A DNA stretch of 64,000 nucleotides, from contig CAYNXC010000002.1 in NCBI GenBank assembly GCA_964401135.1, positions 112,975 to 176,974 on the forward strand, read 5' to 3'. Position numbers and translations under genes: made by a program. Shown piece by piece: positions 19,022-32,273 of this stretch. Within the stretch, counting starts at the first letter, position 1. Each line of letters starts with the position of its first letter. A model generated the notes under the pieces. It was not told the DNA's origin, ran no database searches, and saw only the letters and a program-made list of their open reading frames with translations. The stretch is from an uncultured Candidatus Saccharibacteria bacterium (lineage in GTDB: Bacteria > Patescibacteriota > Minisyncoccia > Phycocordibacterales > UBA9988).

Positions 19022-19095
19022 TGCCGAGTCGTCTAATGGTAGGACATCGCCCTTTGGAGGCGAGTATCTTGGTTCGAATCCAAGCTCGGCAGCCA
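19022..19095 (+). tRNA. tRNA-Gln(TTG): tRNA-Gln (anticodon TTG), CCA encoded; overlapped on opposite strand by the 3-prime end of the recombinase ORF
   Basis: acceptor tgccgag/ctcggca (U1-A72), anticodon stem tcgcc/ggcga loop ctTTGga, T-arm cttggttcgaatccaag, discriminator G + CCA. Confidence 0.8.
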
Positions 19096-20694
19096 ATTTG
19101 CATCTTTTTGATGCGCAGACACTTTTTGTCCAGTAGTTGCTGGCTCTTTTGTGATTTCTGCCAGTTCGTAGCTCATATTCAAGCGAGGAATCCAATTATG
19201 CAGAAATTCGGCAGCTTTTGAGTAAACGGGCTTGATTTCATAACGGTTTTGCAGAAGGTTCGTAAAAAGCTGGGAGAGAAGCAGACGCTTTTCCTCGATG
19301 TTGGCTTTCTCATAGATTTCCTTCGACCTGAATGCAAGCTCGTGGACTGCTAGACCAAGATGCAGAAACTCATCATTCTTGTCTCCCAAGCGTTCTAGCG
19401 CAGCTTCCAAGGTTTCTTCTTCGGTAGTGCACTCGGCAATCTTACGCTCAACGTATTCAAGTGGAGCTTCGCGGTTGATTTTTGCTTCGTAGTATTTGTC
19501 CTTCTGTTGGCGCACGTTGGCGAGAAGTCCGTTGAGATGAGCTATTTCTTGCTCGCGTGTCTTGATTTTGTCCGCGTGTTCCTCGCGCAAGATATTTTCA
19601 ATCTCGCATAGCACCTCCTCACTCTTGGGTGCGATGAGGTCAAAGAAGTCTGTATACTGGGACTCAATACGGTCTTGGCGCACGCAGGTTTTACCAGAAC
19701 ACCTCTTATACTCGCCGTGATTATTACAGTGTCCATACCAATGTCCTTTCTTCTCGTACCAGGTCAACATTCCGCCGCAGTGTTCACACTGAATCTTGCT
19801 CTTGAAAAGAGGGTTGTGCTTCGCCAGGTGCGGATTTTTGGTCTTGCGGCGCAAGATAGTCTGTACTTTGTCGAAGGTATCTTTGGTAATGATAGGCTCG
19901 TGCTTCGCAGGTAATACGCCACCTTTCCATCGCATCTTGCCGTAGAAGAAAGGATTTTGCAGAAGCTGGTGGATTTTACTCATCCCAACTTTCTTCCCGC
20001 CTTTCTTGATTTTCTTTCCATCCACTTCTTTTTCAGTGATTCTAGTACGCAGCCCCTTCTCGTATAGTTCCTTTTCTAGCTTTGAAAGGGAGTAGTTGCC
20101 TGTAGCGTACAACTCAAACATTTTTTTGATGTGAGGTGCGATATTCTCATCTACCTGGTGAATCTTGCCACCAGTTTCTTCGAGAGGTTTGTATCCTAGC
20201 GGTGGCTTTGTTGGGTATAGTTCATTCTCGACCTTCACTTTTTGACTCTTACGCACTTCTTCGGAAAGGTTATTGGAATAGAAGCGAGCGATAGCTACTT
20301 TCATATCCCATACAAGATTCTCGTGCGCTCGTGTCTCGCCGTTTGCGATAAATGATTCCTTTACGAAGTGAACAGCCCTCTGCGGGTCAGATTTAAGCCA
20401 TTCATCCACTGTTCCAGCGTCTTTAAGATTTCTAGTCAGACGGTCAATCTTTTCACATAAAATAACAGGAATCTTATTCTTGGTAGCAAACTGAATCATC
20501 TCGTAAAAGGTCTTTCGAGCGTGCTTGCCACTCGCAGATTCAGAGATTCGATACACTTTCACAACATTAAGATTCCTCTTGGTTGCGTGCTCTCTCAAGA
20601 GATTTTCCTGCGCGTCGAGTGAATAGCCAGTTTCCTGGTCTTTGGTTGAAACTCGACAATATGCAACTGCTTTTACTTTTGTTTCTGTGCTCAT
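19033..20694 (-). CDS. large serine recombinase (integrase) of integrated element; last ~21 codons lie antisense to tRNA-Gln
   Basis: N-terminal resolvase catalytic segment AVAYCRVSTKDQ, recombinase domain, zinc beta-ribbon CEHCGG...HCNNH...C, C-terminal coiled-coil. Confidence 0.85.
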   Translation of the reverse strand: MSTETKVKAVAYCRVSTKDQETGYSLDAQENLLREHATKRNLNVVKVYRISESASGKHARKTFYEMIQFATKNKIPVILCEKIDRLTRNLKDAGTVDEWLKSDPQRAVHFVKESFIANGETRAHENLVWDMKVAIARFYSNNLSEEVRKSQKVKVENELYPTKPPLGYKPLEETGGKIHQVDENIAPHIKKMFELYATGNYSLSKLEKELYEKGLRTRITEKEVDGKKIKKGGKKVGMSKIHQLLQNPFFYGKMRWKGGVLPAKHEPIITKDTFDKVQTILRRKTKNPHLAKHNPLFKSKIQCEHCGGMLTWYEKKGHWYGHCNNHGEYKRCSGKTCVRQDRIESQYTDFFDLIAPKSEEVLCEIENILREEHADKIKTREQEIAHLNGLLANVRQQKDKYYEAKINREAPLEYVERKIAECTTEEETLEAALERLGDKNDEFLHLGLAVHELAFRSKEIYEKANIEEKRLLLSQLFTNLLQNRYEIKPVYSKAAEFLHNWIPRLNMSYELAEITKEPATTGQKVSAHQKDANWLPSLDSNQDTRLQRAMSYH

Positions 20695-20700
20695 AGTTGG

Positions 20701-21252
20701 TTATTGGTTATCTTTTTTGTTATTAAGATTTCCATCTCCATCAAGCATTCCCATTTCTTTATAAAACTTCATCCTGCCAGCCTCTGATAGACCCCAGGGA
20801 TTACCTGCTCGCGCTGCTAGTTCTTGCTTGCGCTTTGCTTCGTACTCCTCAAGAAACTTCATTGTCTCTTTCTCTTTTTCCCAACGCTCATTTAGTTTAG
20901 GGTGAGGAATATAAACAGATTTTCCTTGTCGTAATAGTTCAAGCTGTTCCTCAATTTTCCTTTCGTCCTCTCGTTGGTTGTAGAGATGTTGTCCTACGCT
21001 ACAGATTCCCCACACGAGAAGGAAAAGACGGTAGCTCGTATCAATCTTTGTGATTTCAATTCCAATAGTCCAATCAAGAGCTATGCTCAATAGGAAAAGT
21101 ATTCCGAAGGCATAAATGAATCCAAAGAATACGATTCCTAGAAGGTACGAGATGCTTTCCTTTATTTCTTTTAGTGTTGATTGTTCTTGCATACAAAAAG
21201 CGGCAGCCGAGGAGCCTGCTGCCCGTAGTAATGAATTGCACGAGGCAACCAT
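20701..21252 (-). CDS. hypothetical membrane protein of element (2-3 TM helices, charged C-terminal tail); start uncertain
   Basis: hydrophobic segments LLGIVFFGFIYAFGILFLLSIAL and RLFLLVWGICSV; no RBS evident at either candidate start. Confidence 0.45.
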   Translation of the reverse strand: MVASCNSLLRAAGSSAAAFCMQEQSTLKEIKESISYLLGIVFFGFIYAFGILFLLSIALDWTIGIEITKIDTSYRLFLLVWGICSVGQHLYNQREDERKIEEQLELLRQGKSVYIPHPKLNERWEKEKETMKFLEEYEAKRKQELAARAGNPWGLSEAGRMKFYKEMGMLDGDGNLNNKKDNQ

Positions 21253-21375
21253 TTACGGAGGTCTCGACTGCCGCTTTCAGTCCATAAATGGAGCCTGAAA
21301 AGGCAGAGACCTCGTACATATTTCATTACTACAGGCAGCGTACTAATTATAGCAAGGTGTACAATTGTGGCAAGT

Positions 21376-21600
21376 CTACCTTTTGTCCACAGCGTTAAGC
21401 GCATCAGCGATTGCAGCAATAATGTCGTGGATGATACTCTCACTCACTTTTTCGATTTCTTCTTTTGTTAAAGGTCTATCAAGATACGCTTCCGCCTGGT
21501 CTTGCAAGTCAGCTTCTGTAAGCTCGTAGATGGTACGTCCTTCGCCTATTGTGTTCATCTGATTTAGTTGGTTAAAGCTAATAATCTCCAGGGGGTGCAT
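21376..21600 (-). CDS. small acidic hypothetical protein of element
   Basis: 74-aa ORF co-oriented and abutting (3-nt gap) the primase-polymerase gene. Confidence 0.4.
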   Translation of the reverse strand: MHPLEIISFNQLNQMNTIGEGRTIYELTEADLQDQAEAYLDRPLTKEEIEKVSESIIHDIIAAIADALNAVDKR

Positions 21601-21602
21601 TT

Positions 21603-23324
21603 TTAACCATCATCCACCCTGGGTTGGTTGAGTGTGCAAAGTACGGTGTTTTTCTGTCCCTGTTCCGTGTGCACTTCGCCAGCCTCGATAAGTTCTTCGA
21701 GCGTAGTTTTAAGGGTAGAGCGTCCGACTTTCACACCAGCGTCTCCGACACGTTTCAAAACATCACTTTTTGACAGTGGCTCAAGTGATTTTTCCAGTAC
21801 GCTTTTAATAGCCGCCGCAGCCTCTGCCTTCTTGCTCGGTTTCTCTTTCACTTTACCCGCGTACTCGAATCTCAAAGAATGCGGTTCGCTAACGACATTC
21901 ACCTCAAAAGGTTTCTGTTCTTCCTCCTGTCGCAATTTAGTCTGGGTAAGTGTTAAAAACCTCTCATCTGCTTTTCTTGATACAGCAATATGACAGTCCA
22001 GGAACGCGAGAATATCGGATGAGCCACGCATCTCTTGGGATAAATTAGAGGATACGCCACCTTGTTTTCTATGGTGATGCGTGATGAGAACGCTGATGCC
22101 ATTCTTCGTGAACTCTTTGAGATGTTTGGAAACAGCCGCCATTTTTGAAGCATCATTTTCATCTGTATTGTGAATCCTAATGAACGAATCGAAGATGATA
22201 ACTTTCGCTTCCAGCTTTTCGGCTACACCCAGAATGCTTTGCACATTCTCATCATTCAAAGAGAATCCTTGAAGTGAAATAAAGTGAATAGGCAGACCCG
22301 ATGTCGCCGAAAGTTTCTTTAACCGACCTTGAATCAGAGACGGAGAGTTTTCTTCGTCTACGATGAGTACAGGACTTTTCATAACATCAAAGTTATCGAA
22401 AACTCTGTTACCCTCGGCAATTTTGAGTGCGATATGTAGCGTGAGCCACGTCTTGTAGACCGCAGGTGCGCCAGAAATGAAAGTGATAGCGTCTTTCGGA
22501 ATGAGATTCTCGACCACCCACTGAATATCGCCGAAGTCTTGCCGCATCAATTCATCTAGGGACGTTGAAGCGAATGTTTTTGCAGGTTCTTTCTCGCCGC
22601 GCTTCTTGTTTTCACGTTCTCGAATACTCTCAAACGTGCGGCGCAGCTCAACTTCTTCGAGTGGAGGATTGCACTTGCTTTGATTCCAAGCAGATACAAG
22701 CGACCACGCCATTTCCCAGTCATTTCTGTCACGAAAACTACCGAGTAATTTTCCAATGACTTTTGCTGCGGTGTCATTGCGCCTACCTTCCAAAACTTTT
22801 TCATCTGTATTCCGTGAATCATTCCGTGTGCTTACTGGAATCTGTGTATCGAGCACCCACTGTGGCAATTCCTCAAAGCCAGAATCATCAGGAGAAATAA
22901 TCCACTCGTAGGATTTACCACTTTCGTGAATTGAGGGCGGCATAACTACGTACCCACCATCACCACGAACATCCACGTGCGAAATGATTCCAGCACTGTT
23001 TTTAACCTCTCTGCCTGGGTGCTTGTAGAAATAATGTTTTCCTCTACCTGTACGAGAAACTGCTGTAGGAGAAAGTGGTTTGTCTATCTTTTCCATCGTG
23101 TCTACATCAACCACAACAATGCCAGAAATTGCACCTGTAATGACTCCAACATTAGCGTTGGGAAACCGCGCATACCACTCCTCAATTTGTTCCTTCGATG
23201 CTCGCTCTTTCTGATACTTTTGCCAAACTACAAGTGGTTTTTTATCTCGCCCAACAGGAAAAACAGAGAAGCCGAGTTCGGCGTAATGCAATGCTGATTT
23301 AAGAATCTCGTTTCTGTTTTCCAT
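21603..23324 (-). CDS. replication protein: bifunctional DNA primase-polymerase (PrimPol) N-terminal domain fused to RepA/AAA_25-type ATPase-helicase domain
   Basis: PrimPol-like LGFSVFPVGRDKKP...GVITG...VVVDVD; ATPase block LIVDEENSP...VLITHHHRKQGG typical of AAA_25/RepA. Confidence 0.7.
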   Translation of the reverse strand: MENRNEILKSALHYAELGFSVFPVGRDKKPLVVWQKYQKERASKEQIEEWYARFPNANVGVITGAISGIVVVDVDTMEKIDKPLSPTAVSRTGRGKHYFYKHPGREVKNSAGIISHVDVRGDGGYVVMPPSIHESGKSYEWIISPDDSGFEELPQWVLDTQIPVSTRNDSRNTDEKVLEGRRNDTAAKVIGKLLGSFRDRNDWEMAWSLVSAWNQSKCNPPLEEVELRRTFESIRERENKKRGEKEPAKTFASTSLDELMRQDFGDIQWVVENLIPKDAITFISGAPAVYKTWLTLHIALKIAEGNRVFDNFDVMKSPVLIVDEENSPSLIQGRLKKLSATSGLPIHFISLQGFSLNDENVQSILGVAEKLEAKVIIFDSFIRIHNTDENDASKMAAVSKHLKEFTKNGISVLITHHHRKQGGVSSNLSQEMRGSSDILAFLDCHIAVSRKADERFLTLTQTKLRQEEEQKPFEVNVVSEPHSLRFEYAGKVKEKPSKKAEAAAAIKSVLEKSLEPLSKSDVLKRVGDAGVKVGRSTLKTTLEELIEAGEVHTEQGQKNTVLCTLNQPRVDDG

Positions 23325-23326
23325 AA

Positions 23327-23596
23327 TTATTTAATCTTCTTGCTCTTTTCAGCCCAACCACATACGAAGCCTGCCAAGAAGGATGTATCAACCAGGCTTT
23401 TCACATTCAGAAAAGAAATGGGCATACCACCAATTGCATCTGATTTAGCCAGGTTTGTTTGACTGAAATTGGAGAACTCTCGCCACATCTGCTGTTTTAT
23501 TCCCAAGAGTTTTTCTGCTCTTTTTGCGTTGTGTTCGGCTGCGTTGATGACTTGATGCGGGAACTTATTTAAGAACTTTTTAGTAAACTTTTTCAT
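23327..23596 (-). CDS. hypothetical small protein of element
   Basis: ORF only, co-oriented in operon-like array. Confidence 0.35.
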   Translation of the reverse strand: MKKFTKKFLNKFPHQVINAAEHNAKRAEKLLGIKQQMWREFSNFSQTNLAKSDAIGGMPISFLNVKSLVDTSFLAGFVCGWAEKSKKIK

Positions 23597-23603
23597 ATCT
23601 CAA

Positions 23604-23783
23604 TTAGCTATTTTTATTTACCTCCTCGTTTTTAATGCGAAGCTCAATCCTTGCGAGCGTCAGGTAGTAGTCCATTGCTGCTTCCAGCAACTTCTTCACA
23701 TCCTCATCGGGTATACCCGTGAACGCTCCGAGCTTGTCGAAAGGTTTGCGTAGCCGTGCAATTTGTTCGGGTCTCAATTGCAT
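23604..23783 (-). CDS. hypothetical 59-aa protein (below ORF-track cutoff)
   Basis: in-frame ATG..TAA MQLRPEQIARLRKPFDKL..., fills gap between co-oriented genes; not otherwise supported. Confidence 0.25.
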   Translation of the reverse strand: MQLRPEQIARLRKPFDKLGAFTGIPDEDVKKLLEAAMDYYLTLARIELRIKNEEVNKNS

Positions 23784-23785
23784 AG

Positions 23786-24055
23786 CTACTTCTCCGCATA
23801 GAGGCGGTTCTTAAGTTGGCGGAAATTATGGAACAGACTTTGGATGGGGACTTCAATTGTTTTGTCTCCCCAGAAGTCGCTGATAGCTGTTTCAATTCCT
23901 TCCGTCGCGGCAAACACAAAGTCCATCCTCTTGTCGCTTGTACGCTCCAAACCGACCAATTTGAATTGGAGCGTGAGCAGCGTTGCTGCCAAGCCAATAT
24001 CACTGATGAATACTTTTTGCTCTGTGCTTGCCATACTCTGATTCTTGCAAGCCAA
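23786..24055 (-). CDS. hypothetical small protein of element (strand choice tentative; alternative + ORF 23816-24067)
   Basis: co-orientation with flanking minus-strand genes. Confidence 0.3.
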   Translation of the reverse strand: MACKNQSMASTEQKVFISDIGLAATLLTLQFKLVGLERTSDKRMDFVFAATEGIETAISDFWGDKTIEVPIQSLFHNFRQLKNRLYAEK

Positions 24056-24163
24056 GTCCGTACCTAGATATCTCCATAGATACTTTCCAAAAGAGAAAAC
24101 ACTCCCAGAAATGAGAGTGTCTTTTTTACTTGTCCACAGTAGCTATTGAGTACCTATGGGTAC

Positions 24164-24871
24164 CTATCCGATTTTGATGATTTCTATCCGAGGGTTGAGT
24201 CTGTAGCCGCTCCCTTGTTTCGCTTCAATGAGTTTGAGTGAACCTTTTAAGTCCAGCTCGTCAGCAGTTGCTTTATTGAGCTTTCCAAACTCATTGCGCA
24301 ATCGTGCCGATGTCATATCAAGTTCTGATGCCATATCCTGCGTACTTAACTCGTAGTCAGCATTAGGATTGTCAATAAGATATTTGAAAACTTTGAAAGG
24401 CGCTCCATTTCGTGCCATAGAGTATGATTTTTCTTTCGTGTCCTTGAAAACAATCCCTTCGTCTTTGTAGTACAGAACCAATTTGTCTATTGGTGTTTGA
24501 GTAGAGACAACAGACTTTTGCTTATTCACAAATGCCGCAATCTTCTTCGGGTCAATCGTTATACGCCACGCGGTTTCTATGGAGTCGAGCATTTCCTCGT
24601 CGTTTTTTCGCCAGTTTTCTATATCTGCCTCTGATATCTCGTTGAAGTGCCATTCATTTTCTCCGCTCGTTCGCTCCATTTGTCCTTTGCATTGTTCGTG
24701 ATTGCTTACGCCGTGTTTGGATAGAAGCGAAAATCCCAGCATTAAATCGTGCAAGGTAATACCTTTCGCATCAAACATTTTTGTCGGTACATACACGACA
24801 CTTTTTTCTTTATTAAAATCTACACGCGAGTAGTCGTGAATGACTTTTGCGATATCCATCTCCATTGCCAT
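24164..24871 (-). CDS. hypothetical protein of element, possible C-terminal DNA-binding domain
   Basis: 235-aa ORF divergent from xis-like gene; no firm motif. Confidence 0.4.
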   Translation of the reverse strand: MAMEMDIAKVIHDYSRVDFNKEKSVVYVPTKMFDAKGITLHDLMLGFSLLSKHGVSNHEQCKGQMERTSGENEWHFNEISEADIENWRKNDEEMLDSIETAWRITIDPKKIAAFVNKQKSVVSTQTPIDKLVLYYKDEGIVFKDTKEKSYSMARNGAPFKVFKYLIDNPNADYELSTQDMASELDMTSARLRNEFGKLNKATADELDLKGSLKLIEAKQGSGYRLNPRIEIIKIG

Positions 24872-24938
24872 TTATCCAGTTTACCACAACTGGACACATT
24901 TGCTCATAGGCTTACATCGTAGTATTATGAGTATACCT

Positions 24939-25151
24939 ATGAAGAAAAGTAAGGAGGAGCAATTTTTGACTCTTCAAGAGGTCGCCAAGCGCTTGCGGGT
25001 TAGCGAGCGTTCGGTGTTTCGATATATTCACGACGGAAAGATTGAAGCCACGAAAGTGGGCTACTGGCGCATCACTGAAAGTGCTTTGGCAAAGTTTTTG
25101 AAAGACCGCTCCAATCTGAACAAGTCGCCGCGTAAGAAGTCGAAAAAGTAA
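24939..25151 (+). CDS. xis: excisionase-family HTH DNA-binding protein (MerR/Xis-like HTH_17); start at MKKSKEEQ
   Basis: LTLQEVAKRLRVSERSVFRYIHDGKIEATKVGYWRI matches excisionase/HTH_17 pattern. Confidence 0.7.
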   Translation: MKKSKEEQFLTLQEVAKRLRVSERSVFRYIHDGKIEATKVGYWRITESALAKFLKDRSNLNKSPRKKSKK

Positions 25152-25176
25152 CCTCGTTTTTTGAAATGGAAATGTA

Positions 25177-27687
25177 ATGCAAAAAGAAGCCAAAGCCAGA
25201 ATCAAAATAAACAACCTACTACAGCAATCTGGCTGGAGGTTTTTCGATGATGAGAACGGCAAGGCAAACATCACCCTTGAGCTTAATACCAAACTTACGA
25301 ACAAAGATATCAATGATATCGGCGAAAACTTTGAGAACACAAAGAACGGTTTTGTAGACTTCCTTCTGCTCGACGATAAGGGCTTTCCGTACGTTGTTCT
25401 TGAGGCAAAGTCCGAGGACAAAGACCCTCTTGATGGTAAAGAGCAGGCACGTCGCTATGCGCAGTCTCTGAACGTCCGCTTTGTTATCCTTTCAAACGGG
25501 AACCTCCACTACTTCTGGGACTTGGAGCGCGGCAATCCATCCATCATTATCCAATTCCCAACACCTGAATCTCTACAACATTTTGAGCAGTTCAAACCGA
25601 ATCCTAAACAACTTGCCGAGGAAAAAGTTTCTAACGATTACATAGTTCTTACCCAGAAAGCGGAGTACCAAAATGACCCGCGCTGGATAGACGAAGCACA
25701 GCGAGATGATTTCGTGTACGCGGAGTCGCTCAAGTTCTTGCGCCCGTATCAGCTTCGTGCGGTTCAGTCTCTCCAAGAAGCTGCTACTGCTGGTAATGAC
25801 CGTTATCTTTTTGAGATGGCAACGGGTACGGGTAAAACACTCGTGTCTGCTGCTGTTATCAAACTCTTTCTCAAGTCTGGTAATGCAAAGCGCATCCTCT
25901 TTCTTGTAGACCGTTTGGAACTTGAAGACCAAGCCGCAAAGAGTTTTAAGAAACTACTCTCGAAGGATTACACAACTGTTATCTACAAGGAGAGCAAGGA
26001 CGATTGGCGTAAGGCAGAGATTGTTGTCTCAACAGTGCAAAGTCTATCTTTCAATAACAAATACCAGCGACTCTTTTCTCCAACTGACTTCGACCTCATT
26101 ATCTCTGACGAAGCCCATCGTTCAATAGGCGGAAACAGCCGTGCGGTTTTCGAGTATTTTGTTGGCTACAAGCTCGGACTTACAGCAACACCAAAAAATT
26201 ATCTCAAGGGCATTGACCCAGATAAACTCAACTCAAAAGACCCTCGTGCGTGGGAACGCCGACAACTTCTTGATACCTACAAGACTTTTGGTTGCGAGAG
26301 CGGAGAACCTACATTCCGATACACACTCCTCGATGGCGTGAAAGATGGATATCTCATCAACCCTGTTGTTGCTGATGCTCGTACAGAGATTACGACAGAG
26401 CTTCTTTCAGAGAAGGGATATTCTCTGATGGTTGAAAGTGAAGATGGTAAAGAGGAGGAACAGGTCTTCTTTCATACTGATTTCGAGCGTAAGTTTTTCT
26501 CCGACAAGACCAATCAGATTTTGTGCAAAACATTCTTGGAAAACGCACTCAAAGACCCGATTACGGGTGAAATAGGAAAAGGTATCGTTTTCTGTGTGAG
26601 CCAGAAGCACGCCTCAAAAATTACCCAGACGCTCAATCAGTTTGCAGACCAGCTTTATCCAGGAAAGTACAACTCCGATTTTGCGGTGCAGATTACTTCC
26701 AACATTCCGAACGCACAGGAATATACCATCAACTTTGCGAACAATAACCTTAATGGCTATACGAAGTTCCTGGATGGCTATCGTTCCAGCAAGACACGCG
26801 TCTGCGTAACGGTAGGAATGATGACAACAGGATATGACTGCGAAGATATCCTGAATGTGGCACTGATGCGCCCTATATTCTCTCCAACAGATTTCATTCA
26901 GATAAAGGGACGCGGTACACGTAAGTTTTCGTTTGTGCACCAGGAAAAAGAAGGTGGCGAGATACAAGAAGCAAAGATACCAAAAGACAAGTTCAAGCTG
27001 TTCGATTTCTTTGCGAACTGTGAATACTTCGAGGACAAATATAACTACGATGAGGTTTTGGTTCTTCCAACCATCGGCACGGGCACAGGTGGTGGTGATG
27101 GTGTGAATATAGACGAAGTATCAATCACACAGCACGACCCACTCAAGACGTTTACTGAAAAAGCGGTTGGTATGGATGGAATGAAGATTGACCGCAAGCT
27201 ATTTGAGAAGTTTGAGGCGGCAATCAAAGAAGACCCATTCATCAAACAGAAATACGAAGAAGGCGACCTTGCTTCCATCGAAAATTACGTAAAAGAAAAT
27301 ATCTTCGATAAGCCAGAGGAATGGTTTAGTCTCGATAAGCTCCGCAAGTCTGTCAAAGCTGACCGTCGCATCAGCATCCGTGAGTTCATTGCCAAAGCGT
27401 TTGGAGGCATCACCAGGTTCAAGTCAAAGGATGAATTGCTTGAAGATGAGTTTGAGCAATTTGTCGCTATCAACAAACCAGACAGCCAATACGTAATGCC
27501 AATCAAGAATTATTTGAAGGCATACATCACTGATAACGAAATTAGAGACATTATCGAGAAAGGAGAATATACGCGCTTGGCAACCAACCCCAAGCTCACG
27601 TTTGCTGACCTCCAAGAGCTAAATGGTTGGATTGAACGCGTGCCAGAATACGTGAAGGACTACGTATCTCTTAACGCTTATATGTAA
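25177..27687 (+). CDS. hsdR: Type I restriction enzyme R subunit
   Basis: HsdR_N nuclease motif VDFLLLDDKG...VVLEAKSE, SF2 helicase motifs ATGTGKT (I), DEAHR (II), C-terminal helical region. Confidence 0.9.
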   Translation: MQKEAKARIKINNLLQQSGWRFFDDENGKANITLELNTKLTNKDINDIGENFENTKNGFVDFLLLDDKGFPYVVLEAKSEDKDPLDGKEQARRYAQSLNVRFVILSNGNLHYFWDLERGNPSIIIQFPTPESLQHFEQFKPNPKQLAEEKVSNDYIVLTQKAEYQNDPRWIDEAQRDDFVYAESLKFLRPYQLRAVQSLQEAATAGNDRYLFEMATGTGKTLVSAAVIKLFLKSGNAKRILFLVDRLELEDQAAKSFKKLLSKDYTTVIYKESKDDWRKAEIVVSTVQSLSFNNKYQRLFSPTDFDLIISDEAHRSIGGNSRAVFEYFVGYKLGLTATPKNYLKGIDPDKLNSKDPRAWERRQLLDTYKTFGCESGEPTFRYTLLDGVKDGYLINPVVADARTEITTELLSEKGYSLMVESEDGKEEEQVFFHTDFERKFFSDKTNQILCKTFLENALKDPITGEIGKGIVFCVSQKHASKITQTLNQFADQLYPGKYNSDFAVQITSNIPNAQEYTINFANNNLNGYTKFLDGYRSSKTRVCVTVGMMTTGYDCEDILNVALMRPIFSPTDFIQIKGRGTRKFSFVHQEKEGGEIQEAKIPKDKFKLFDFFANCEYFEDKYNYDEVLVLPTIGTGTGGGDGVNIDEVSITQHDPLKTFTEKAVGMDGMKIDRKLFEKFEAAIKEDPFIKQKYEEGDLASIENYVKENIFDKPEEWFSLDKLRKSVKADRRISIREFIAKAFGGITRFKSKDELLEDEFEQFVAINKPDSQYVMPIKNYLKAYITDNEIRDIIEKGEYTRLATNPKLTFADLQELNGWIERVPEYVKDYVSLNAYM

Positions 27688-27689
27688 TT

Positions 27690-30113
27690 ATGCTTACCGC
27701 AGAAACAAAAAGAAAAATTGATAATGCGCGAGATATCCTCGTAGGAAAAGTGCCAGACCCGAAGGCGCAGGTGGAGCAGATTACTACGGCGCTCATCTAT
27801 AAGTTTATGGATGATATGGATATGCACTCTGCCTCTCTCCCGAAAGGTAAAGCGCAATTCTTCACTAACGGTTTTGGAAAATATGCCTGGAGCAAACTGA
27901 TGGATGCGAAACTTGGTGGGCAAGAGCGTCTGAATCTTTACGAGGAAGCGATTAGAAAGATGTCTACTAATCCACACTTACCTCAACTTTTTCGTGATGT
28001 ATTTAAGGATGCTTATCTACCTTATCGAGACCCACAAACACTTAATCTTTTCTTGAAGGAGATAAACGATTTTGAATACGACCATAGCGAGAATCTTGGT
28101 GATGCGTTTGAATACCTACTTTCTGTACTTGGCTCTCAAGGTGAGGCTGGACAATTTCGCACACCACGCCACATCATTGATTTCATTGTTGAAGTGCTTG
28201 ACCCTAAAAAAGATGAAACCATCCTCGACCCAGCGTGTGGTACGGCAGGTTTTCTAATTTCTGCATATAAACACATACTCAAGGCAAATGAAAAAAAGCG
28301 ACTTACACCAGACGAAAAAAAGCGGCTAATGAGCAATTTGGCTGGATACGATATTTCACCAGATATGGTGAAGCTCTCTCTTGTGAATATGTATCTCCAC
28401 GGTTTTCCAAGTCCGAATATTCACGAATACGATACACTCACAAGCGATGAACGTTGGGACGAGCACTTTGACGTAATGATGGCGAATCCTCCTTTTATGA
28501 CTCCGAGGGGCGGTATCCGTCCTCATAAGCGATTTATGGTGCAAGCGAATCGTGCAGAAGTCTTGTTTGTTGATTACATAATGGAACATCTCAACAGCAA
28601 GGGGCGCGCAGGTATTATTGTTCCTGAAGGTGTTATTTTTCAATCTGCTGGTGCATATAAAGAGTTGAGGCGAGCGCTTGTGGCAGATGGATTGTATGCG
28701 GTTGTATCTTTACCTGCTGGTGTCTTTAATCCTTATGCGGGAGTGAAAACCAGTATCCTATTTTTTGATAACCAACTCTCAAAGTTATCCAAGGAAGTGC
28801 TTTTTATCAAAGTACTCAATGATGGTTTTAGTTTAGGTGCACAACGTAGACCAATAGATAAAAATGATTTACCACACGCTCTCAAGGTTTTGCAGGCGCA
28901 CAAAGAGGCAATACTCAATAAGAAAAGAAGCCCTCTCAAAAAAGAAAACCTGTTTGCTTGGACAATAAGTAAAAAGAAAATTGCTGAACGTGTTGATACT
29001 AACCTTGAGGGAGAGAGATACAAACCAGTAAAGTTTGCTGAAAGATTGAAGCATCCATTAGAGGAGTTGGGTAACATTATCGAACTCGATTTTGGAACGA
29101 GGATTACTCAAAAGAATAATACTGGCAGTCTATATCCTGTTTATGGTGGAGGCGGTGAAAGTTTTAGAACCGATGACTTCAACAGGCAGGATGAGGTAGT
29201 GATTTCGAGGTTTGCTATGTCAGAAAATTGTGCGCGAGTTGTGAAGGAAAAGTTTTTCCTAATGGACTCTGGTTTTACTTACTCAATCAAGGAAGAGTTT
29301 GCTGCTAGGGCGGATAAACAGTTCATAGATTACCTAATACTCAATATGCAGGAGCGTATCTATGCCTGTGGCAGAGGGCACGCCCAAAAGAATCTTGATA
29401 CCAAGGCTTTCAAAAAGTTACTCATTCCACTTCCAACACTTGAGGAACAGAAACAAATTATTTCTGAATTAGATAGCTACCAAAAAGTGGTTGATGGTGC
29501 GAATCAAGTAATTGAACACCACAAACCATCAATTCAAATTAGCGAGTCTTGGGAACGAGCAGAACTAGGTGATATTGCCAAGATGGAGTATGGATACACA
29601 GAAACAGCAAAGATTAAGGGAGATGCTCGTTTTGTCCGTATAACAGATATCAGTAACGAAGGACACCTAAAGTCGGAAGGTGCGAAGTACGTAAACCTTA
29701 CCAAAGAGGCAAAGGCATACTTACTCAAGCGCGGGGATGTTCTTGTTGCCCGTACTGGTGCAACGTATGGCAAAACTATGATTTTCAATGAAGAATATCC
29801 AGCAGTATTTGCTTCGTTTCTTATTCGCCTCAATTTCGATACCAAAAAGATTCTCCCAGAATACTATTGGGCATTTGCTCAAACCACTGATTACTGGAAT
29901 CAAGCAAGGGCGTTAGTAACAGGCGGTGTGCAGCCGCAGTTCAATGGTAATGCAATGAAACATCTTTCTATTCCACTACCAAGTTTAGAAGTCCAAGAGC
30001 AAATTATTGCTCAAGTGAAAAATGAACAAGCACACGCTTCATCTGCGATGAAAATGGTTGAGATTTATGGAGATAAGATTAAAAATAAAATTGCCGAAAT
30101 ATGGGGCGAATAA
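27690..30113 (+). CDS. hsdMS: fused Type I R-M methyltransferase-specificity protein (HsdM ~470 aa + HsdS with two target-recognition domains)
   Basis: HsdM N-terminal domain, SAM motif DPACGTAGFL, catalytic NPPF; C-terminal two TRD blocks each ending in HsdS conserved spacer LPLPTLEEQKQI / LPLPSLEVQEQI; uninterrupted 807-aa frame. Confidence 0.85.
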   Translation: MLTAETKRKIDNARDILVGKVPDPKAQVEQITTALIYKFMDDMDMHSASLPKGKAQFFTNGFGKYAWSKLMDAKLGGQERLNLYEEAIRKMSTNPHLPQLFRDVFKDAYLPYRDPQTLNLFLKEINDFEYDHSENLGDAFEYLLSVLGSQGEAGQFRTPRHIIDFIVEVLDPKKDETILDPACGTAGFLISAYKHILKANEKKRLTPDEKKRLMSNLAGYDISPDMVKLSLVNMYLHGFPSPNIHEYDTLTSDERWDEHFDVMMANPPFMTPRGGIRPHKRFMVQANRAEVLFVDYIMEHLNSKGRAGIIVPEGVIFQSAGAYKELRRALVADGLYAVVSLPAGVFNPYAGVKTSILFFDNQLSKLSKEVLFIKVLNDGFSLGAQRRPIDKNDLPHALKVLQAHKEAILNKKRSPLKKENLFAWTISKKKIAERVDTNLEGERYKPVKFAERLKHPLEELGNIIELDFGTRITQKNNTGSLYPVYGGGGESFRTDDFNRQDEVVISRFAMSENCARVVKEKFFLMDSGFTYSIKEEFAARADKQFIDYLILNMQERIYACGRGHAQKNLDTKAFKKLLIPLPTLEEQKQIISELDSYQKVVDGANQVIEHHKPSIQISESWERAELGDIAKMEYGYTETAKIKGDARFVRITDISNEGHLKSEGAKYVNLTKEAKAYLLKRGDVLVARTGATYGKTMIFNEEYPAVFASFLIRLNFDTKKILPEYYWAFAQTTDYWNQARALVTGGVQPQFNGNAMKHLSIPLPSLEVQEQIIAQVKNEQAHASSAMKMVEIYGDKIKNKIAEIWGE

Positions 30114-31459
30114 CCAAGAACATTATGAACCTCACCACTGAACAAAAGAAGGAACTGGAATCTTACTTGACGACATATCGAGACGTGCCAATTGTCGAGA
30201 ATGACGGTATGCAAGAATCATACGCATCCTTTGATGATAAGCGTGTTGCTGCAACAGTTGAGATAAAGAAGCTGGTTGATGATTTTCTGCGCGGCGGTCT
30301 TTCTGTTGCCGAGTTCAAGGAACAAAGCGATGCAATGAGTCGCAAGTTTTCATATTGGGGGTTCAAAGGTTTTAGCGGACAGATGCAGCTCAACCAGTAC
30401 GCAAACAATATCGAAGACGCAGAACAAGAGCAGCGTCTTAAGGAAGCTATTGCATTGCCCGCAACTCTCGATGAGGCGGTAGCGAAAATAAACACTTTCG
30501 CGGAGTATATGCGGGAGCTGAAAACAAAAACCGATAATCCCAAGAGTATCCCGCGTATCAACCAGTCTTTTATGCTCTCGTACTTCTGGGAGATGCAAAG
30601 CCCTGAACTCTATCCTGTGTACTTCGGTTCAATGAAGAACGTGTTGGAAAACCTGGGCTTTGACTTCAAGAGCCAAGAGACACCAGGAGACGAGTACCGA
30701 TACTTTGCAGAGATTTGCTACGCAGTTCGTGAGTTCTTTGAACAGAGCGGAATGCAGGAAACACACCCGATATGGTACGTCGAACACGTTATCTGGCACT
30801 ACTTCAAAAAGCAGAATACGGAGATTGAGACAGAGGTAAAACAAGCAGTGCCAAGCAAAATCAGAATCGGAAAAACACCAGAAGAAAGTTGGACACCACC
30901 TATCATTGGCGACCTTGAACAATTGGCGCTCAATCAAGAAACCGAATGGTCAAAATTGCGTGGGCTAAAACCTGAAAAAGCGTTTGAGACCAAGCTACGT
31001 TATCTGTTTACCATTCTTGGATACAACACCACCGAGCTTGGACAAGGTAGAGGCAGAGAGCCAGACGGTATTACTATCTCCAATGACGGTAACGCTGGCT
31101 ATTACGCCATCATCTACGATGCAAAAGCACGAGAAAAGGATTACTCAATCGGTACACAAGACCGAGAGATTGTTGAATACATCAAAAACAAACAGCGTGA
31201 GTTGCAGCGCCAGCGCGTTGATAAGGTTTCTTTCTTGATTGTTTCTTCGGAGTTCACTAACAGTCCTTCACTTGAAAACTCACTCAAAGACATCTACCGA
31301 GCAACGCGAGTACCAGTGATTCTCGTACGGGCAAAAGACCTGTTGCGTATCGTCGAGCGCAAACTATCGAATGCAGATATAGACCACGTGCAGCTCGAAG
31401 ACCTGTTCCTTGAGACAGGCGTACTCACCGCAGATAAAATTGTGGACGTACTTGGATAA
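30101..31459 (+). CDS. hypothetical protein with C-terminal Mrr-like PD-(D/E)xK restriction-endonuclease fold and unrecognised ~280-aa N-terminal domain; overlaps hsdMS stop (alternative start 30125)
   Basis: C-terminal ILGYNTTELGQGRGREPDGITIS...YAIIYDAKAREK fits Mrr_cat PD...(D/E)xK pattern; N-terminal region has no recognisable motif. Confidence 0.6.
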   Translation: MGRITKNIMNLTTEQKKELESYLTTYRDVPIVENDGMQESYASFDDKRVAATVEIKKLVDDFLRGGLSVAEFKEQSDAMSRKFSYWGFKGFSGQMQLNQYANNIEDAEQEQRLKEAIALPATLDEAVAKINTFAEYMRELKTKTDNPKSIPRINQSFMLSYFWEMQSPELYPVYFGSMKNVLENLGFDFKSQETPGDEYRYFAEICYAVREFFEQSGMQETHPIWYVEHVIWHYFKKQNTEIETEVKQAVPSKIRIGKTPEESWTPPIIGDLEQLALNQETEWSKLRGLKPEKAFETKLRYLFTILGYNTTELGQGRGREPDGITISNDGNAGYYAIIYDAKAREKDYSIGTQDREIVEYIKNKQRELQRQRVDKVSFLIVSSEFTNSPSLENSLKDIYRATRVPVILVRAKDLLRIVERKLSNADIDHVQLEDLFLETGVLTADKIVDVLG

Positions 31460-31460
31460 T

Positions 31461-32273
31461 ATGAAAAAGAAAACCGCCATCATACTCATAGTTGTTGCCG
31501 CTATCATCGCCTTCATCGCGGGGGCGTGGGTTTTTATGGGCGACTATTACGAAGCTGATGAGACTGCGTACATTCCTGAAAGTTGCAACGTGCTTGCGTT
31601 CGCCGTCAACGGTTATCTTGCTACATACACCAGCGACACCACAGCAGAAGAACTCGAAATGGATGCTGTTTCGTCGTGGAATATCGCCGATGGCATCCGC
31701 CACGCAAAAGATTACCCGAACGTCAAAGCAATCCTACTTTCCGTTGATTCAAGTGGCGGAGACCCCACCACTGGTGAAGAGATAGCAAACGCTCTCAAAG
31801 CCCTAGAATTGCCTTCTGTAGCGGTTATCCGAAGCATCGGAGCATCTGCTGCATATTGGGCTGCTACAGGAGCGGATACAGTCTTTGCATCTCGTGTTTC
31901 TGATGTTGGCAGTATCGGCGTTACCGCTTCTTATCTTGATGAGACCGTTAAGAATGCAAAGGATGGCTACACACTTGTAGAACTATCATCAGCACCACAC
32001 AAAGATGCGGGTAGCCCGAACCGCGCTCTCACTGCGACAGAAAAAGCAGCTATCGTTTCCGACCTCAAGAAGATACACGAAGTATTTGTTGATGATGTTG
32101 CTGCGAATCGAAACCTTGAACGTGAGAAAGTGGCACAGCTTGCGAACGGACTCACCTATCTCGGCGTTGACGCGCTTGAGTACGGCTTGGTAGATAAACT
32201 CGGCGACTTCACTGCCGCCACTGACTACATCGCAGAACAGATTGGCGAGCCAGTGGAGTTGTGTTGGTACTAG
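31461..32273 (+). CDS. sppA: signal peptide peptidase SppA-like (S49 / ClpP-fold) with N-terminal TM anchor
   Basis: TM helix AIILIVVAAIIAFIAG, S49 core ILLSVDSSGGDP...VIRSIGASAAYWAA. Confidence 0.75.
   Translation: MKKKTAIILIVVAAIIAFIAGAWVFMGDYYEADETAYIPESCNVLAFAVNGYLATYTSDTTAEELEMDAVSSWNIADGIRHAKDYPNVKAILLSVDSSGGDPTTGEEIANALKALELPSVAVIRSIGASAAYWAATGADTVFASRVSDVGSIGVTASYLDETVKNAKDGYTLVELSSAPHKDAGSPNRALTATEKAAIVSDLKKIHEVFVDDVAANRNLEREKVAQLANGLTYLGVDALEYGLVDKLGDFTAATDYIAEQIGEPVELCWY

Follow-up and report, generated by a model that had tools for sequence, protein, structure and literature searches.

A stretch of 64,000 nucleotides from an uncultured Candidatus Saccharibacteria bacterium (GenBank assembly GCA_964401135.1, contig CAYNXC010000002.1, forward strand) carries a Type I restriction-modification operon which is directly followed by a gene encoding a two-domain nuclease. 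The whole stretch is called the window in the following, all positions refer to it, and the downstream gene is designated gene X. Gene X extends from 30125 to 31459 on the plus strand and encodes 444 amino acids, as deduced from the list of open reading frames (ORFs), the translation and an identical database protein (P0001); residue numbers are counted from the ATG at 30125. Together with hsdR, hsdMS and a gene for an S49 peptidase it forms an array of four tightly packed, co-directional genes on the plus strand (25177-32273). The first of these, hsdR (25177-27687, plus strand), encodes the restriction subunit of a Type I system of the EcoAI or Type IB kind. It was recognized by the Pfam families ResIII, HSDR_N and HSDR_N_2, by the PADLOC model REase_I and by the NCBIfam model EcoAI/FtnUII with an E-value of 2.4e-73 and 247.8 bits, which is well under the curated cut-off of 550 bits. 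Two nucleotides past hsdR begins hsdMS (27690-30113, plus strand), which encodes a fused methyltransferase and specificity subunit of 807 amino acids with an N6_Mtase domain (E 7e-55) and two Methylase_S stretches in Pfam as well as MTase_I and Specificity_I in PADLOC. In the window hsdM and hsdS are fused and hsdR is separate; in related loci the M and S genes are unfused.

An earlier note on this DNA, made from the letters and their ORFs, had proposed that X overlaps the hsdMS stop codon and is translationally coupled to hsdMS. An ORF from 30101 to 31459 is indeed present on the plus strand, and from its first ATG (30101) it would run across the hsdMS stop codon TAA (30111-30113), but the homologues do not use this ATG. 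A second ATG lies at 30125, and the equivalent Met is the start in every close homologue. The identical protein P0001, which was called on a 190-kb NCBI contig, likewise comprises 444 amino acids and starts at 30125. When seven related loci were aligned as DNA, similarity extended from a few bases before ATG 30125 to the X stop codon, and further upstream no conservation was found. Judged by these comparisons, ATG 30125 is almost certainly the true start; a start at ATG 30101 is supported neither by the homologue starts nor by the database gene model nor by DNA conservation. With ATG 30125 as start codon, X begins 11 nucleotides past the hsdMS stop without any overlap, and the proposed coupling through overlap, which rests on ATG 30101, is not supported. 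X does lie closely packed with hsdR and hsdMS and in the same direction, and co-transcription of hsdMS and X is plausible. Promoter and terminator scans of the region returned nothing above chance level.

The FokI-type nuclease domain

The C-terminal part of X (amino acids 254-444; 30884-31456, plus strand) is a cleavage domain of the FokI-type PD-(D/E)xK kind. FokI_cleav_dom (PF09254) was the sole Pfam family detected in X (E 1.4e-7, 31.6 bits, cut-off 25), with a match covering residues 295-436 of the 452-residue ORF translation, which correspond to residues 287-428 counted from ATG 30125. Alignment of the family profile with the sequence of the FokI cleavage domain gave a probability of 93% and an E-value of 3e-7. 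In this alignment REPDG of X is paired with RKPDG of FokI and IIYDAKA with VIVDTKA, so that D314, D332 and K334 (31064-31066, 31118-31120 and 31124-31126, plus strand) correspond to D450, D467 and K469 of FokI. None of the three varies among 79 homologues, which come from many phyla. These alignments establish X as a nuclease whose predicted D-D-K catalytic site is intact.

The earlier note had described the C-terminus as Mrr-like on the basis of the motifs REPDG (D314) and IIYDAKAR (D332, K334). Both motifs are present, the PD...DxK pattern with its catalytic residues is intact, and the D/E-x-K residues are kept throughout the alignment of the 79 homologues. The family, however, is FokI-type PF09254 and not Mrr_cat: a Pfam scan of X gave no match to Mrr_cat (PF04471) even at E ≤ 1.

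Two further conserved residues, the invariant R347 and E351 (conserved in 91%; window 31163-31177), align with D483 and R487 of FokI, the residues forming the salt bridges of the cleavage-domain dimer. The charges are swapped, and the pairing depends on the alignment register. Given the exact register, the swapped charges would be compatible with a symmetric dimer of X, and from the sequence comparison dimerization appears likely.

In an AlphaFold model of the whole protein the mean predicted local distance difference test score (pLDDT) is 87, apart from a disordered inter-domain linker (amino acids 233-253; 30821-30883, plus strand) with values below 50. The length of this linker varies from 14 to 41 residues across the X family. 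X and the Type IIS enzymes FokI and BspD6I thus have in common the fold of the cleavage domain, the D-D-K residues and the C-terminal position of this domain after a linker. Three further proteins (P0104, P0105 and P0107) share the FokI-type domain with X (55% identity) and carry in front of it a different, unrecognized N-terminal domain of about 230 amino acids. This domain has no Pfam match and no significant hhalign match to the profile of the X N-terminal domain; it may be another reader domain.

The N-terminal domain and its partners in other proteins

Residues 1-232 (30125-30820, plus strand) form a helical domain with one beta hairpin, for which we propose a role as sensor of modified DNA. 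No Pfam, NCBIfam, PADLOC or PDB sequence match was obtained for these residues, neither alone nor as profile. PDB sequence searches with the X protein and with family profiles gave no meaningful match, Pfam searches with 30 N-domain sequences yielded scattered chance matches only, and PADLOC returned no match for X. The NCBIfam search with X produced one sub-threshold chance match, to the IS66 TnpA model (E 0.059, 13.9 bits, cut-off 28). No glycosylases were found by sequence or profile searches with the N-domain. The statement of the earlier note that the N-terminus resembles no recognizable family therefore stands with respect to the sequence libraries; its extent has to be corrected from 280 amino acids to a domain of 232 amino acids and a disordered linker of about 21.

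The fold could be predicted with confidence. Modelled alone from 30 diverse sequences, the N-domain reached a pLDDT of 95.7 and a predicted template modelling score (pTM) of 0.91, again helical with one beta hairpin. The best match in the fold comparison was the 8-oxoguanine glycosylase Tm1821 of Thermotoga (score 8.0), followed by MUTYH (6.2), OGG1 (5.9), the queuine-salvage protein DUF2419 (5.8) and the phage 5-PmdU glycinyltransferase gp46 (5.6). MutY, AGOG, MagIII, Mig, AlkA and Mag1 scored lower, as did EndoIII with 4.5-4.6. The same glycosylases were recovered with the model of the whole X protein. Among the viral structures of BFVD, Foldseek returned no match to the N-domain at E ≤ 0.001. 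Since the list of fold matches is consistent, though the scores are moderate, a DNA-glycosylase-like fold of the helix-hairpin-helix (HhH)-GPD type, as in Ogg, EndoIII and MutY, is the best description of the predicted structure, and the models support it with moderate strength.

A winged helix of the Mrr_N type, in the presence of which X would have to be regarded as an ordinary Mrr, was not detected by Pfam; its place is taken by the helical glycosylase-like fold of about 230 residues. The PD...DxK motif is present and a distant relative of the N-domain (P0378) is fused to Mrr_cat, but X itself has neither an Mrr_cat match nor an Mrr_N domain, and membership in the Mrr family is rejected. 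Of all explanations considered here, an ordinary Mrr-family Type IV enzyme is by far the least probable.

Residues that are invariant in the N-domains of the 79 sequences are R40, F64, K65, W78, G79, F80, G85, N90, P112, A118, P143, S152, Y153, F154, W155, Q158, Y191, E220, H221 and W224; Q86 and M87 are conserved in 97%. Most of the invariant residues are aromatic or pocket-like (W78, F80, Y153, F154, W155, Y191, H221, W224). The motif W78-G-F-x-G-x-x-G-Q-M-x-x-N90 (30356-30394, plus strand) is located between helices 61-74 and 85-95, in the loop and the beginning of the helix, and, by its predicted secondary structure, possibly represents a helix-hairpin-helix-like element. Active enzymes of the glycosylase superfamily carry an invariant catalytic Asp in the loop after the HhH hairpin. 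In the X family the acidic residues of this loop are conserved in 63% (D98) and 77% (E100) only, and none of them is invariant. The lack of an invariant Asp after the HhH-like hairpin suggests an inactive reader, so that on sequence grounds the N-domain may no longer act as glycosylase.

It is conceivable that the N-domain is nevertheless an active DNA glycosylase and that X works as a bifunctional glycosylase-nuclease, which removes a modified base first and cleaves the DNA at the resulting abasic site or close to it. In favor of this, the N-domain has a glycosylase fold, the residues K65, E220 and H221 are invariant, and with Brig1 a glycosylase which gives phage defence alone is cited by Yee et al. 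(2025, preprint; PMC12191111). On the other hand, no invariant Asp is present where it would be expected, the N-domain occupies the reader position of Type IV enzymes in every fusion described below, and the related sensors of the END nucleases were judged inactive (PMC12191111). We consider an excising X improbable.

At least 123 homologues of X were found in the databases. They belong to Patescibacteria, Planctomycetota, Verrucomicrobiota, Proteobacteria, Chloroflexota and several archaea and carry the NCBI names [quoted passage not shown] or "hypothetical protein." With tblastn no match was obtained in phage records, and two haloarchaeal partial matches were the only ones among plasmids. 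The N-domain itself is distributed more widely. A search of its profile against 1.84 billion representatives identified 665 cluster representatives, 470 of them at E ≤ 1e-10. In these the domain is located at the N-terminus of FokI-type proteins of about 445 amino acids, of McrB-like AAA_5 GTPases (at least 10 examples, one also with EVE), of GmrSD-like proteins consisting of DUF262 (GmrSD_N) and HNH or DUF1524, of one Mrr_cat protein (P0378, the distant relative mentioned above) and of one EVE protein. One of the McrB/GmrSD-type fusions is 43% identical to X over amino acids 1-235. All partners other than FokI, i.e., McrB, GmrSD, Mrr_cat and EVE, are known modification-dependent restriction modules, and in enzymes of these types the N-terminal slot is that of the modified-base reader. 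As in many McrB-like and GmrSD-like proteins, the domain is the N-terminal reader of X; X differs from McrBC and GmrSD in having neither an NTPase nor HNH or DUF1524, its effector being a FokI-type nuclease. The suggestion of the earlier note that the N-terminus could be a new sensor domain thus turned out to be the best reading, with a confidently predicted fold and with fusions to modification-dependent restriction modules in other proteins.

In two McrB-like proteins (P0247 and P0252) an extra helical domain precedes the X-type N-domain. It has a weak match to the "OGG-like" family PF21790 (E 0.007). An hhalign comparison of the X N-domain profile with this first domain was not significant and gave a collinear alignment of 144 columns, in which the motifs WxF..GFxG and SFxxxLxY are shared. 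A homologue search for the first domain of P0247 returned 2 proteins only. P0247 and P0252 may therefore carry a tandem pair of related reader domains. A further "AAA family ATPase" with an X-type N-domain is encoded on a plasmid of the haloarchaeon Natronosalvus halobius (locus L084, 6211-9053); 2 nucleotides past it follows a gene for a 447-residue hypothetical protein without Pfam match, in the usual position of a McrC-like partner.

Genomic neighborhoods and the island

For the comparison of genomic contexts 75 adjacent genes on the same strand as X were surveyed, and the proximity to Type I genes was determined by tblastn at 80 loci within a distance of 10 kb. Among the 75 neighbors N6_Mtase occurred five times, HSDR_N four times, ResIII three times, and YgjP, AbiEii, AAA_21 and Mrr_cat twice each. 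As no family exceeded five of the 75, a conserved partner gene of X was not found.

These numbers bear on the question whether X is a Type IIS-like, sequence-specific endonuclease whose sites are protected by HsdMS or another methylase of the host. Such an enzyme would be in accordance with the FokI-type cleavage domain, which is the hallmark of Type IIS enzymes, and with the methyltransferase gene immediately upstream of X. Adjacent methyltransferase genes are rare in the survey, however, and no methyltransferase is obligatory for X as it is for FokI. The triple winged-helix recognition domain of FokI is missing, and the N-domain is unlike it. In the X family the N- and C-terminal domains co-evolve (r 0.92), with mean pairwise identities of 40 and 50%, respectively; since both change at similar rates, the N-domain is unlike a sequence-specificity domain, which would diverge. 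It is well conserved, not sequence-specific in character, and shared with McrB- and GmrSD-type enzymes. In addition, the recognition site of a Type I enzyme is bipartite and unlikely to be matched by a small monomeric reader. A Type IIS-like function of X therefore has little to recommend it, and we rate it as low as base excision.

At about 16 of the 80 loci (approximately 20%) a Type I gene was present within 10 kb, and about 80% were without. By our own estimate such linkage would be expected by chance in under 1% of 20-kb windows. On these counts the linkage of X to Type I systems is clearly enriched and not due to chance, and it is just as clearly far from obligatory. The gene orders of Type I operons that include X, internally or at the end, were R-MS-X (the window), M-S-R-X, M-S-R-YgjP-X, R-S-(..)-X-M and X-R-S-M. 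Within a clade of Patescibacteria the X proteins are 68-76% identical, and the adjacent HsdR proteins form three groups with no more than 23-31% identity between groups. Since similar X proteins stand next to divergent HsdR proteins, the linkage must have arisen with, or persisted across, Type I systems that are not orthologous; at least three such operons are joined to related X genes of Patescibacteria. The clade includes exceptions. In one close relative the Type I operon runs in the direction opposite to X, one X gene lies beside Mrr and Type IIG genes, and another one beside a PHP-AAA_21 gene. A copy from Omnitrophota that is 51% identical to X is solitary among housekeeping genes. Outside the Patescibacteria clade the closest kin of Type I-linked copies are mostly without such linkage.

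The earlier note regarded X as "wired into" a Type I system. Taken further, X could be a functional accessory of the Type I enzyme, i.e., an extra nuclease or sensor that docks on the Hsd proteins or is controlled by them, for example as a backup firing when the Type I enzyme is inhibited, similar to PrrC in EcoprrI. The distance of 11 nucleotides from hsdMS in a tight array, the placement within Type I operons or at their end, with five or more gene arrangements and across several phyla, the linkage re-created or kept in Patescibacteria and its frequency above chance would all agree with this. Obligatory partnership is ruled out by the roughly four fifths of the loci without a Type I gene, and further points against a controlled accessory are the absence of a dominant neighbor, the divergently oriented operon, the copies beside other defence genes and the unlinked nearest kin outside Patescibacteria. 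The other partners of the N-domain (McrB, GmrSD, Mrr, EVE) moreover work without Type I enzymes. The proposed wiring is thus weakly supported, and a Type I accessory appears unlikely to us, if somewhat less so than a Type IIS-like or a base-excising enzyme. The neighborhood comparison proposed in the earlier note has in this way led to an enriched linkage without a conserved partner.

In the immigration control region of E. coli K-12 (mrr - hsdRMS - mcrBC) the linked enzymes act independently, while the anticodon nuclease PrrC, whose gene is part of the EcoprrI hsd locus, is physically dependent on the Type I enzyme with which it is paired. In the K-12 region, at EcoprrI and at the X locus alike, a mobile or variable island carries Type I genes in physical linkage with nucleases that are modification-dependent or serve as backup. 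For X the evidence favors independence as in K-12 rather than dependence as in PrrC, and by analogy the arrangement recalls the way in which Type I and Type IV systems are classically paired in defence islands.

In the window hsdR, hsdMS and X are cargo of an integrative island of about 12 kb at a tRNA-Gln gene (19022-31459), with X as the last gene. The left part of the island (19022-23324) comprises the tRNA-Gln gene detected by ARAGORN at its start (19022-19095, plus strand), a large serine recombinase gene (19033-20694, minus strand; Pfam Resolvase, Recombinase and Zn_ribbon_recom), the ORF of which runs into the tRNA gene, and a Prim-Pol/AAA_25 replicase gene (21603-23324, minus strand; Pfam Prim-Pol, PriCT_1 and AAA_25). 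The G+C content is 41-45% from about 20 to 31 kb and 46-53% in the flanks. When direct repeats were sought as attachment sites of the island, only short chance repeats were obtained and no long ones at its ends. The right border of the low-G+C island falls exactly at the junction (31457-31463) between X and the gene of the S49 (SppA-like) peptidase, whose ATG (31461) is located 1 nucleotide past the X stop codon. In the closest relatives (L004, 11357-13726, and contigs of P0002) a protein of 789 amino acids without Pfam match is encoded 7 nucleotides after X, and at P0003 the gene after X encodes an AAA_13 protein. These may be further defence genes.

X as a candidate END-type nuclease

The most similar design among known systems is that of the recently described END nucleases (END-PaCF1, END-Mag). 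Each of these is a defence encoded by one gene, in which an inactive domain of the EndoIII/Ogg type serves as sensor for a variety of hypermodified bases (Yee et al., 2025, preprint; PMC12191111). Their sensor is fused to a PLD nuclease (END-PaCF1), to a "NucS-like" PD-DExK nuclease (END-Mag) or to a McrB-like GTPase, and they restrict hypermodified phages without an associated methyltransferase (PMC12191111). The founding member, END-PaCF1, comes from a defence island in which it adjoins a Type I restriction-modification system (PMC12191111). X and the END nucleases agree in several respects: a domain with a glycosylase fold, in X the proposed reader, is fused to a nuclease with intact active site, the protein is encoded by a single gene without a conserved methyltransferase partner in a defence-island setting beside Type I genes, and the sensor is also fused to McrB-like GTPases. 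The likeness of the sensors is one of fold only, and END-Mag was compared by its description. In END-PaCF1 the nuclease, which is of the PLD (HxK) type, is N-terminal and the sensor C-terminal, whereas X has the reverse order with a FokI-type PD-(D/E)xK nuclease. The X family furthermore is centred on Patescibacteria, Planctomycetota and Verrucomicrobiota. The glycosylase-like reader together with a FokI-type nuclease is most likely a new domain combination within this recently described kind of defence.

Taking these observations together, we regard X as probably a self-contained restriction endonuclease which consists of a single polypeptide, is modification-dependent (Type IV-like) and follows the plan of the END nucleases, and we hold this with some but not with great confidence. 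The N-terminal domain, which probably no longer excises bases, would flip or pocket hypermodified, non-canonical bases of invading DNA, and the flexible linker would connect this reader to the FokI-type domain with its intact D-D-K center. Two X molecules would pair their cleavage domains, as in FokI, and cut both strands near the bound site. The Type I enzyme would attack unmodified foreign DNA, and X would attack DNA that escapes by base modification, so that both are best read as complementary rather than interdependent. Judged by analogy to the enzymes sharing its reader, X is most likely specific for modified DNA. Its autonomy is suggested by the lack of a conserved neighbor, by the solitary and other defence contexts and by DNA homology which ends at the ends of the ORF, and according to these gene-level comparisons X would be independent of the Hsd proteins. 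The earlier note had called X a modification-dependent or accessory nuclease; modification dependence is the best-supported part of this statement, while a role accessory to the Type I system is not favored.

Four points weigh against this interpretation. The invariant K65, E220 and H221 could be catalytic. The N-domain is acidic with a pI of 4.9 (family median 5.5), which is unusual in a DNA-binding domain. In Patescibacteria the Type I linkage is more persistent than simple independence predicts, and hypermodified phages of Patescibacteria are not known. X of Patescibacteria could be functionally tied to the Type I system, or X could be a defence enzyme that both excises bases and cuts double strands; even taken together, these two outcomes are unlikely. 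In the Type I-tied form X could be a second effector which is activated or recruited when the Type I complex stalls or is inhibited by anti-restriction proteins of phages.

Should the proposed function be correct, the use of a disabled repair-glycosylase fold as detector of modified phage DNA would extend to a FokI-like nuclease and to a new domain order. FokI-type domains are the workhorse of engineered nucleases, and a natural reader of modified bases on a FokI-like domain could serve for the detection or cutting of hypermodified DNA. The sensor would represent a family of readers which is orphaned at sequence level and lacks a Pfam model, and with one such model many "hypothetical" defence genes could be annotated better. 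The recurrent linkage to different Type I operons would make a case for studying the combined restriction of unmodified and modified DNA by one mobile island. Finally, the principle of the END nucleases would reach new lineages, including the poorly studied Patescibacteria and several archaea.

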